From positions 2,144,001 through 2,208,000 of the forward strand of contig OZ219754.1 of the NCBI GenBank assembly GCA_964291295.2: a stretch of DNA of 64,000 nt, given 5' to 3'. Shown here piece after piece: positions 26,290-26,691 of this stretch. How positions within the stretch are numbered: position 1 is the stretch's first letter; every line of letters starts with the position of its first letter. The position numbers and the translations under genes were made by a program. Source of the stretch: an uncultured Candidatus Binatia bacterium (GTDB taxonomy: Bacteria > Desulfobacterota > Binatia > UBA9968 > JAJDTQ01). Under the pieces are notes generated by a model. It made no database searches, was not told where the DNA came from, and worked only from the letters and a program-made list of their open reading frames with translations.

Positions 26290-26691
26290 TCATGTCGGGC
26301 CGTTGCAGTTTGGACTCGTCAAGGCCGCCTCCGCCGCACCGGCGACCGCACCGACGACCGCGCCCACGACAACGCCGCCGCCGGTGACGGCGGCTCTGGC
26401 CGCGCCCACGGCGGCACCCACTGCCGCAGCATGGGTCACGTCGTCCACGCACGATTGCTCGTCCTCTTCCTCGGCATCAGCGAGGGCCTCCGGATTGGCC
26501 ACGGCACAGTCCGAACAGTCCGAGCATGTGCAGCTGCAACCGCAGCCACAGTCACCGCACCCGCATCCACAACCGCATCCACACCCGCATCCGCATCCGT
26601 GAATCTCCAGGTCGAGTTCGCCCTCCTGGGCACCGAGCCGCCAAGGGACGGCTGCCGCCGCTTCGTCGATGGCAATGTGATGCTGTTCCAT
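26290..26691 (-). CDS. 133-aa Cys-Gly-repeat / glycine-zipper peptide (putative secreted RiPP or bacteriocin precursor, or metal-binding peptide)
   Basis: AAGGAGG RBS before ATG 26691. Sequence runs leader-like ...GELDLEIHG, then CGCGCGCGCGCGCGDCGCGCSCTCSDCSDC, an acidic linker, and C-...AAAVGAAVGAARAAVTGGGVVVGAVVGAVAGAAEAAL...-C. Confidence 0.8.
   Translation of the reverse strand: MEQHHIAIDEAAAAVPWRLGAQEGELDLEIHGCGCGCGCGCGCGCGDCGCGCSCTCSDCSDCAVANPEALADAEEEDEQSCVDDVTHAAAVGAAVGAARAAVTGGGVVVGAVVGAVAGAAEAALTSPNCNGPT

Follow-up and report, generated by a model that had tools for sequence, protein, structure and literature searches.

The 64,000-nucleotide stretch of DNA considered here (the window) belongs to the genome of an uncultured Candidatus Binatia bacterium (the source genome; contig OZ219754.1, positions 2,144,001 to 2,208,000). 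On its minus strand lies a short series of genes headed by P0001, a small gene whose product is rich in cysteine. An earlier note, made from the letters of the sequence, had described this product as a modular peptide with a metallothionein-like or cross-linked Cys tract joined to a helical hairpin. The features of the locus are as follows.

26701..26706, minus strand: Shine-Dalgarno-like GGAGGA, 9 nt 5′ of the ATG at 26691 (direct sequence reading)
26290..26691, minus strand: precursor gene P0001 (133 aa; stop codon 26290-26292), with 22 database homologues and 41 copies in the genus
26596..26691, minus strand: leader, residues 1-32 (..VPWRL..ELDLEIHG), with invariant residues; the same leader is found on precursors adjacent to an MNIO gene
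26506..26595, minus strand: core tract, residues 33-62, 14 Cys; candidate MNIO substrate
26452..26505, minus strand: acidic linker, residues 63-80 (AVANPEALADAEEEDEQS), from sequence reading
26293..26451, minus strand: “type A” C-terminal domain (residues 81-133), a helix-GGG-helix hairpin in an AlphaFold2 model, with C81 and C129 as brackets
26083..26289, minus strand: GC-rich structured intergenic spacer of 207 nt between the precursor gene and the four-transmembrane gene, from RNA folding
25636..26082, minus strand: mem148, a predicted multi-pass (four-transmembrane) membrane protein of 148 aa, of no known family; cognate neighbor of type A domains
24302..25639, minus strand: HlyD-family type I secretion adaptor (TIGR01843, 321 bits; cut-off 208.65)
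23250..24305, minus strand: TauD/TfdA-family Fe(II)/2-oxoglutarate oxygenase (PF02668, 7.8e-30)

Translation of 26290-26691 on the minus strand yields, as the earlier note had claimed, 133 residues with 16 Cys; 14 of these are clustered within the 30 residues from 33 to 62. The modular build it proposed is likewise borne out by the translation, the family alignment, and the AlphaFold2 model. A leader (MEQHH...ELDLEIHG) is followed by a tract of (GC)7 GDCGCGCSCTCSDCSDC, an acidic segment (DAEEEDEQ), and a hairpin framed by two Cys (C81...Ala/Gly/Val-rich...C129). The residue after each tract Cys is always Gly, Ser, Thr, or Asp. An alternative open reading frame (ORF) of 152 aa starts from an ATG at 26748, and the homologues begin at the start of the shorter ORF. 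The acidic N-terminus (MEQHHIAIDEAAAAVPWRLGAQEGELDLEIHG) contains neither an h-region nor any other hydrophobic core, and hence no Sec signal peptide, as judged by reading the sequence rather than by a predictor. Pfam and NCBIfam searches placed P0001 in no family, metallothionein, DUF2282, and the bufferin signature included; the only match was a chance-level one to a glycine zipper. A promoter and terminator scan around P0001 found no minus-strand sigma-70-like promoter and no T-tract terminator. Three sequencing runs from one study, of DNA or unknown kind, contain the stretch, with no RNA run among those listed, and these have no bearing on expression.

The Gly-Cys tract is written in mixed codons (GGA, GGG, GGT, and GGC with TGC and TGT), and Tandem Repeats Finder detects only an imperfect period-6 array at 26555-26599 (7.5 copies, 76% matches). 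When 13 codons (ELDLEIHGCGCGC) were compared with 41 homologous copies, differences at codon positions 1/2/3 numbered 37/7/262, and there were 211 synonymous against 67 non-synonymous codon differences. Because of this bias, the minus-strand frame is taken to be the selected one, in agreement with the view of the earlier note that the variety of Gly and Cys codons reflects selection on the protein. Judged from these substitutions, P0001 is a real gene under purifying selection. Opposite it, on the plus strand, lies an antisense ORF of 106 aa (PHPHP..., 26282-26602), which the earlier note had considered as a possible expressed frame; the same codon-position bias counters that possibility and marks the antisense ORF as a by-product.

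Homologues that conserve both the tract and the leader, on which the earlier note had made its proposal depend, are available. Twenty-two relatives emerged when 5.8 billion proteins were searched, and each contains “..PW.L....DLDLE[IV]HGCGCGC” together with a tract of Cys, Gly, and Ser and a linker of acidic character. Residues W17, L19, L26, E29, H31, G32, C33, G34, C35, and G36 are invariant in the alignment of these relatives, and acidic linkers are present in every long family member. Named relatives derive from metagenome-assembled genomes (MAGs) labeled Candidatus Binatia, Deltaproteobacteria, or Thermodesulfobacteriota. Whole-genome searches found the family in 23 of 24 other genomes of the same genus, with 1–5 matches each, and not in any of 16 genomes that represent other genera of its order or of 400 other genomes in a wider sample of the phylum. 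Metagenome contigs from JGI gave 89 pattern matches and no relatives. In the genomes searched, the family is therefore restricted to one genus of uncultured bacteria, and P0001 is the sole gene of the source genome with this leader or a comparable run of X-Cys.

Forty sister loci (designated by L numbers) were fetched, in which 41 copies were read by pattern; an extra copy in L084 lies outside that pattern. The leader (..PW.L..DLDLE[IV][HD]G) and the start of the tract are constant across the family. At four loci (L051, L059, L062, and L063) the leader ends in ..DLEVDG, with Asp in place of His31. A leader had been suspected in the earlier note from a loose likeness to the double-glycine type; conservation upholds the leader and not its type, since position -2 is H or D and no Peptidase_C39 was found in the 99%-complete source genome. 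Double-glycine processing by C39 was accordingly rejected as a candidate for that genome (PF03412, no matches; leader ending HG or DG).

In contrast to the leader, the tract varies from 5 to 19 Cys across copies. Its uninterrupted Gly-Cys run extends from about two repeats up to about 17 in L073, which together with L072 has the longest tracts. Such a range implies that the tract expands and contracts in evolution, mixed codons notwithstanding. The tails that follow the linker are interchangeable. Seventeen copies bear the type A tail, a Cys-bracketed Ala/Gly hairpin as in the window; three bear type A′, a different Cys-bracketed Ala/Gly/Val segment that ends in ..DGDGK/E; and six bear type B, a conserved “..G.DP.A..TGE.Y.P..DE.F..TG.RG.GEM.SP..C” domain. 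L068, L071, and L078 carry long tails that are helical or rich in Ala, and short or truncated forms have little after the tract. Pfam searches with eight members of other tail types gave chance-level matches only and no toxin family. Decayed copies with internal stops, truncation after the tract, or out-of-frame runs stand beside intact ones (for example, G418:C1:240-569, G410:C1:102229-102600, G421:C1:3908993-3909229, L059:7695-8135, L069, and L083), and assembly errors in MAGs may account for some of them. Four non-syntenic loci (L004/L049, L058, L060, and L063) carry a tandem pair of multi-pass membrane proteins of ~430–440 aa, alike in their N-termini (..LFYGWYIV..), a few hundred bp upstream of the precursor; the pair looks MFS-transporter-like by eye, and in L049 a mem148 gene stands between it and the precursor.

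The link between this family and a modifying enzyme comes from the sister genomes. L068 holds a precursor of this leader and tract, with a PF05114 gene (3.4e-71, 240 bits) 7 bp beyond it; in L071 the corresponding distance is 98 bp. Both loci have the order precursor, MNIO (multinuclear non-heme iron oxidase; PF05114, the family of MbnB, TglH, and ChrH), a partner of 260 aa, an ABC exporter of 761–773 aa, HlyD, and TauD. L078 has genes of the same kinds within a few kb, in a different order and with 2.4 kb between MNIO and precursor. Some MNIO-bearing loci additionally contain an SDR and an S9 peptidase. The source genome has exactly one PF05114 gene (C1:2112692-2113489, 249 bits), and it heads a cluster of MNIO, partner, ABC exporter, and SDR, in that order (G000:C1:2109255-2113522), where the MNIO gene occupies 2112641-2113522 and the partner gene 2111875-2112654. 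No other candidate precursor adjoins this MNIO. Identities to L068 by tblastn are 77% for the MNIO, 56% for the partner, 77% for the ABC, and 53% for the SDR; for the genes in the window they are 71% (HlyD) and 58% (TauD). By gene content, then, the source genome holds the same set split in two, with an operon of precursor, mem148, HlyD, and TauD in one place and an enzyme cluster in another.

That the two halves belong together is indicated by HlyD-TauD, which stands beside MNIO-partner-ABC in L068, L071, and L078 and beside the precursor in the window and seven sister loci. TauD adjoins HlyD in all ten HlyD-bearing loci of the 40 fetched. No ABC gene lies near P0001 in the window. The source genome contains only two TIGR01843 adaptors, one of which is paired with its own PrtD-type ABC, and no dedicated adaptor lies close to the HlyB-like ABC that stands beside the MNIO. 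The genome also has two TolC-like OEP genes. Across the genus, peptide and MNIO occur together in 23 of 25 genomes (source included), typically tens to hundreds of kb apart; G413 has neither, and the 76%-complete G418 has the peptide only. In the 16 genomes of other genera in the order, the peptide is absent from all and an MNIO is present in one. These genomes are kin, and their co-occurrence corroborates the link rather than serving as an independent statistic.

The MNIO itself looks active on sequence criteria. In an alignment of 29 sequences from its clade, H64, H99, E144, D177, N180, H208, D227, H229, and E256 are invariant. The iron ligands of MbnB are given as H54, H90, E133, D163, N166, H192, D208, H210, and E239 (PMC9060507), and those motifs of MbnB in which H90, E133, D163, N166, H192, D208, H210, and E239 lie are matched in the alignment by the residues from H99 to E256. 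H64 aligns with the HG motif of Haemophilus somnus DUF692 structure 3bww, and its equivalence to MbnB H54 is presumed. The enzyme is thus apparently intact. Its nearest solved relatives are 3bww (7.5e-44), then TglH, then MbnB (1e-13, profile).

The partner gene (261 aa) overlaps the MNIO stop in the source genome. A sequence-profile search of the partner against the PDB found no match; a fold search subsequently succeeded. In the AlphaFold2 model (pLDDT 84.7), a helical domain at the N-terminus is followed by a beta/alpha domain at the C-terminus, and Foldseek matched the model to TglI (8hi7_A, E 2e-6, TMq 0.63), NGO1945 (3dee, 5.7e-5), and 8hci_A (9.4e-5), with MbnC (7dz9_C) at rank 28 (E 0.21). 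TglI and NGO1945 are the two reference structures that define MNIO partner proteins (Antoine et al., PMC12452194). In the terms of the same source, a partner with a sub-threshold DUF2063 match, as here (Pfam E 0.013), corresponds to “PME-type 2”. Complex prediction with MNIO, partner, and P0001 residues 1-62 gave scores of 0.79, 0.78, and 0.79, against 0.00 and 0.00 with the peptide replaced and 0.70 with the MNIO replaced; given this last value the prediction fell short of its mark and is neither support nor counter-evidence.

At the other end of the precursor, the AlphaFold2 prediction from a 22-row alignment folds residues 67-103 and 107-125 into a helix-turn-helix at ~pLDDT 90, in keeping with the helical hairpin expected by the earlier note, and gives no confident model for residues 1-60. 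Both C81 and C129 are 24 residues away from the GGG turn, a spacing along the chain that fits a disulfide clamp. In the type A alignment, C129 is invariant and C81 is kept in most rows. As for the putative membrane activity proposed in the earlier note, the hairpin is Ala/Gly-rich yet only moderately hydrophobic, with GxxxG-type spacing (GAAVGAA, GAVVGAVAGAA) and the charged residues R98 and E120.

Each kind of tail comes with its own neighbor. By family hidden Markov model, a mem148-like ORF lies ≤191 bp from all 17 type A copies among the sister loci. No copy of another type has such an ORF beside it, apart from a degenerate one (L059a) and a type B one that forms a tandem with a type A copy (L057). 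All six type B copies have a Sel1-repeat protein ≤109 bp away, and all three type A′ copies have a distinct ORF of 125–143 aa with two or three hydrophobic segments directly downstream. Where tail-less copies occupy the syntenic site (L005, L074, L079, and L082), the precursor leads straight to HlyD, with no mem148 or other tail-specific neighbor. Among sister loci, identity is 44–53% for the peptide and 32–60% for mem148, against 85–92% for the flanking UbiD, EutA, and GPP34 genes. The family therefore displays the architecture of polymorphic toxins, in which a conserved N-terminal part is followed by variable tails, each with an adjacent gene of its own. The pairing of tail and neighbor resembles that of toxin and immunity genes, and mem148 is on this basis a candidate immunity or partner protein. 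Its family is tiny: in 1.84 billion proteins, only 24 representatives reach E ≤ 1e-3. No Pfam or NCBIfam match to mem148 was found, DoxX included, and its neighbors in the protein atlas all score <0.9 and share no family.

Within the operon, 4-nt start/stop overlaps join the mem148 stop to the HlyD start and the HlyD stop to the TauD start. The TauD-family oxygenase is probably a tailoring enzyme; its nearest solved relatives are 7n7v, a “predicted hydroxylase”, and FrbJ (5eqn), and a literature search found no paper for PDB 7N7V. RNA folding of the spacer (window 26070-26300, minus strand) gave -120.4 kcal/mol (z = -3.96), with none of 200 shuffles as stable. The spacer forms several long GC-rich hairpins and has no T-tract, and these hairpins may be a transcript-stabilizing or attenuating element of the kind often found after precursor genes.

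Around the operon, a divergent PPK2 gene lies 5′ of P0001, with GPP34, STAS, and UbiD genes farther off, and a convergent EutA-like gene is found on the other side. The latter encodes an ATPase (21718-23292, plus strand), overlaps the 3′ end of TauD by 43 nt, and flanks the peptide locus in every syntenic sister locus. A 959-aa protein with an EutA-like C-terminal half adjoins precursors in L006/L064 (L006:7080-9959, minus strand) and lies ~1.2–1.4 kb from precursor copies in L065 and L070. The GPP34 gene (27879-28571, minus strand; Golgi phosphoprotein 3 family, 8.2e-47) is bacterial and overlaps the STAS-domain gene (28546-28878, minus strand), and several sister loci (L003, L007, L055, L074, and L079) have two GPP34-like ORFs. 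At 18718-20703 (minus strand), 2.5 kb from the peptide operon, a 661-aa protein bears a TbpB-type beta-barrel domain at its C-terminus (PF01298, 4e-17) and matches “Slam-dependent surface lipoprotein” below threshold (NF041636, 45.8 bits against a cut-off of 80); surface lipoproteins of this kind capture metal-carrying ligands.

The family, its architecture, the gene linkage, the integrity of the enzyme, and the fold of the partner are directly supported. On these grounds, P0001 is best explained as the precursor of a ribosomally synthesized, MNIO-modified, exported poly-(Gly-Cys) peptide or small protein with a swappable cargo domain, an interpretation given a probability of about 70%. The chemistry and the effector-immunity relationship are held with lower confidence than this core claim; by analogy, the product is probably a metallophore of thiooxazole or oxazolone/thioamide type. 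Since MNIO and partner are linked to the family in sister genomes and present once in the source genome, the tract is likelier to be an enzyme substrate than a free thiolate cluster, and the metallothionein-like or cross-linked tract of the earlier note is probably the wrong chemistry. A metal-related, possibly toxin-like role for P0001, as it had also proposed, is plausible.

From here we infer the chemistry, the metal binding, the export route, the removal of the leader, and the role of the C-terminal domain with mem148. The 32-residue leader would serve as a recognition sequence for the MNIO partner, the exporter, or both. Maturation would begin with the reading of this leader by the TglI/NGO1945-like partner, which would then hand the Gly-Cys/Ser-Cys tract to the MNIO. 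With HvfA/oxazolin, bufferins, and methanobactin as models, many of the 14 tract Cys would be turned by the MNIO into thiooxazole or oxazolone/thioamide groups, and the modified tract would chelate copper or another soft metal. The TauD-type oxygenase possibly adds a further modification, after which the product would leave by way of the ABC exporter, HlyD, and one of the two TolC-like proteins. In the source genome, the MNIO set would act on the precursor in trans. The hairpin and mem148 would form an effector with its immunity or handling partner. For processing, the S9 prolyl-oligopeptidase gene found near precursors in 11 of the 40 sister loci (L046, L047, L048, L052, L056, L059, L063, L066, L068, L069, and L078) may supply the protease; the L068 enzyme has a lipoprotein-like N-terminus.

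A more ambitious version of this proposal is a fully ribosomal Trojan-horse metallophore-bacteriocin. Here the copper-binding chain of heterocycles made by the MNIO would be imported by competitors through metallophore receptors and would carry a toxic tail with it, while the producer is protected by the tail-specific neighbor (mem148, Sel1, or another small membrane protein) and a single trans-acting enzyme and export set matures the 1–5 scattered precursors of a genome. This joint claim is speculative and rather unlikely in its entirety.

Several observations weigh against modification and export of P0001 as set out above. The MNIO lies 58 kb from the precursor, 31 kb beyond the window, and their linkage in the source genome is deduced from sister genomes that all belong to one genus. 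The MNIO is only distantly related to MbnB, and since MNIOs catalyze many different reactions, the product chemistry is a guess. The ABC of the source genome (G000:C1:2110125-2111852) begins at the membrane domain and lacks an N-terminal domain of ~175 residues that is conserved in the contiguous clusters (L068:5145-7466, L071:4750-7035, and L078:2722-5007, all minus strand), where it matches Peptidase_C39 at E = 0.1 only. The source genome has no S9 peptidase homologue either, and with both the ABC domain and this peptidase absent, removal of the leader in the source organism is unexplained. Turning to the tails, no C-terminal domain matches any toxin family in Pfam. Moreover, although the distances of hairpin and mem148 are correlated (Mantel r = 0.71, reached by none of 2000 permutations), linkage alone would yield such a correlation.

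Some of these points favor the view that the product is a self-protective metal buffer or a surface-anchored metallophore whose modified tract would bind copper in the manner of bufferins, with the hairpin as handle or anchor and the neighbors as handling, docking, or redox partners, and with no antagonism involved. Metal chelation and help under copper stress are described for two kinds of MNIO-modified small protein, bufferins and oxazolin (PMC12452194, PMC11252979), and bufferin clusters often hold the small membrane protein DoxX, according to a preprint. The lack of a recognizable toxin domain in the tails and the charged residues in the hairpin agree with this. However, mem148 is not detectably a DoxX protein, and a housekeeping buffer would not be expected to exist in 1–5 copies with swappable tails and private neighbors, nor to diverge so fast in peptide and mem148 between slowly evolving flanks. 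An ABC/HlyD export route also suggests a destination beyond the cell, not the periplasm. A buffering or anchoring role is accordingly thought unlikely, yet it merits serious consideration. Far less credence is given to an unmodified Cys-rich secreted protein, whose tract would be a metallothionein-like thiolate cluster or a disulfide lattice while the MNIO serves another substrate. The density of 14 Cys in 30 residues would suit such a protein, and so would the distance of the MNIO in the source genome. Yet the same leader and tract stand directly beside the MNIO in L068 and L071 and within 2.4 kb of it in L078, peptide and MNIO co-occur tightly across the genus, and the source MNIO has no alternative precursor beside it. 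A conserved 32-residue non-Sec leader would also have no role in a plain metallothionein, and P0001 matches neither that nor any other Pfam family.

Slightly more improbable again is a class II microcin or Cdz-like bacteriocin, in which a C39 ABC would cut a double-glycine-type leader, mem148 would confer immunity, and the tract would be a spacer. An HlyD adaptor does lie within the operon, the Ala/Gly-rich hairpin stands beside a small membrane protein much as CdzC/D accompany CdzI (PMC5380434), and the ABC of the contiguous clusters has the weak C39-like N-terminus noted above. Set against these likenesses are the lack of Peptidase_C39 matches in the source genome, the absence of any N-terminal domain from its ABC, and the H or D at position -2 of the leader where G would be expected. 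It is also the tract rather than the tail that is invariant in the family, and copies without a tail persist. Finally, Gly-Cys/Ser-Cys runs resemble the cores of azole peptides, and P0001 could be imagined as a YcaO-type TOMM/LAP precursor, or else as no gene at all, with the 106-aa antisense ORF being the real one. The first of these was rejected as a candidate, since PF02624 has no matches in the source genome (3.70 Mb, 99.13% complete) whereas the control found it in 5 of 14 reference genomes, and the codon statistics speak against the second by showing selection in the minus-strand frame. The probability left to either is negligible. A search for copper monooxygenase subunit A (PF02461), considered as a link of the kind seen with methanobactin, likewise gave no match in the source genome; the control genomes also gave none, and the result carries little weight.

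MNIO-modified peptides such as methanobactins, bufferins, and oxazolin are a fast-growing class of metal-binding natural products, and the P0001 family would extend this class in more than one way. Its core of nearly pure alternating Gly/Ser-Cys, which in sister copies offers as many as ~17 candidate sites in a row, would amount to a polymeric metal-binding chain, and a leader-dependent, non-Sec precursor would be coupled to ABC/HlyD export and a TauD enzyme. Precursors that lie far from their enzyme would escape genome mining that is confined to enzyme neighborhoods. The fusion of a modified module to swappable tails with private partner genes is a layout otherwise typical of polymorphic toxins. 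The gene set is small and defined, and lends itself to asking how many adjacent Cys an MNIO processes and whether a metallophore can act as a delivery vehicle. In ecological terms, this is a genus-specific, multicopy, fast-diverging, and putatively secreted system in an uncultured lineage.

Judged by its genes, the system would work like the MNIO metallophore systems of oxazolin, bufferin, and methanobactin, yet lies outside those families. Oxazolin (HvfA-HvfB/HvfC of Haemophilus influenzae) and the bufferins (BufA-BufB/BufC) are likewise small proteins with several Cys and short Gly-containing repeats. For example, HvfA has six Cys in AEGKCGEGKCG repeats, and all six are modified by HvfBC, with new absorbance bands at 258 and 302 nm (PMC11252979); conversion of Cys to thiooxazole or oxazolone/thioamide by an MNIO is likewise described for bufferins. 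In both, an MNIO and a DUF2063/RRE-type partner make copper-binding groups (PMC11252979, PMC12452194), and the same type of enzyme is linked to the present family, with the source MNIO closest in the PDB to 3bww of H. somnus. Unlike them, P0001 has no Sec signal and no DUF2282, Buf_6/12Cys, or EGKCG signature, and the partner, “PME-type 2”-like, has no significant DUF2063 match in Pfam. The core is an uninterrupted (Gly/Ser-Cys)n, reaching about 17 repeats in sister copies, and the system includes an ABC/HlyD export set, a TauD oxygenase, and swappable C-terminal domains. A further difference from the known systems is the distance between enzyme genes and precursors, which in most genomes of the genus amounts to tens to hundreds of kb.

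Methanobactin (MbnA-MbnB/MbnC) shares with P0001 an N-terminal leader without a Sec signal, and its MNIO converts X-Cys to oxazolone/thioamide copper ligands with iron ligands that are conserved in the source MNIO. MbnA, in contrast, is a short peptide with two modified Cys, and its partner is MbnC, against which the partner here scores weakly (7dz9_C, E 0.21). In the pearlin pathway of Pseudomonas syringae (TglA-TglH/TglI), the precursor also has no signal peptide; TglI is the best match to the partner fold, and TglH is the second-best relative of the MNIO. TglHI acts on a single C-terminal Cys that is added to a scaffold peptide, by beta-carbon excision, whereas the substrate here would be a long internal poly-Cys tract. 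Another group for comparison is “adjamnio-I”, 100 putative precursor sequences of 122–293 residues with 8–21 Cys, no signature, and the order precursor, MNIO, PME-type 2 (PMC12452194). This description fits the MNIO-adjacent members of the P0001 family, and the group may include them. In the main-text passages searched in that paper, there is no mention of a (Gly-Cys)n core, of HlyD or TauD, of precursors encoded in trans, or of paired modules at the C-terminus. Among the matches listed in a literature search, there was likewise no HlyD or CGCGC and no combination of MNIO with Binatia or Binatota.

Likenesses on the side of the tail are found in the CdzC/CdzD-CdzAB-CdzI system of Caulobacter, which likewise has small Gly-zipper/Ala-Gly-rich proteins, type I secretion, and a small membrane gene alongside (PMC5380434). 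CdzI is a small multi-pass membrane immunity protein, and the Cdz proteins are thought by the authors of that paper to be probably unmodified. Toxicity and immunity in the P0001 family are putative. Unlike in the Cdz system, the ABC is encoded elsewhere, the source genome has no C39 peptidase, and the proteins of the two systems share no sequence similarity. Siderophore-microcins, for their part, join a metal-chelating group to a toxic peptide. In contrast to both these and Cdz, the metal-binding module of the P0001 family would be ribosomal and would stand N-terminal to its cargo.

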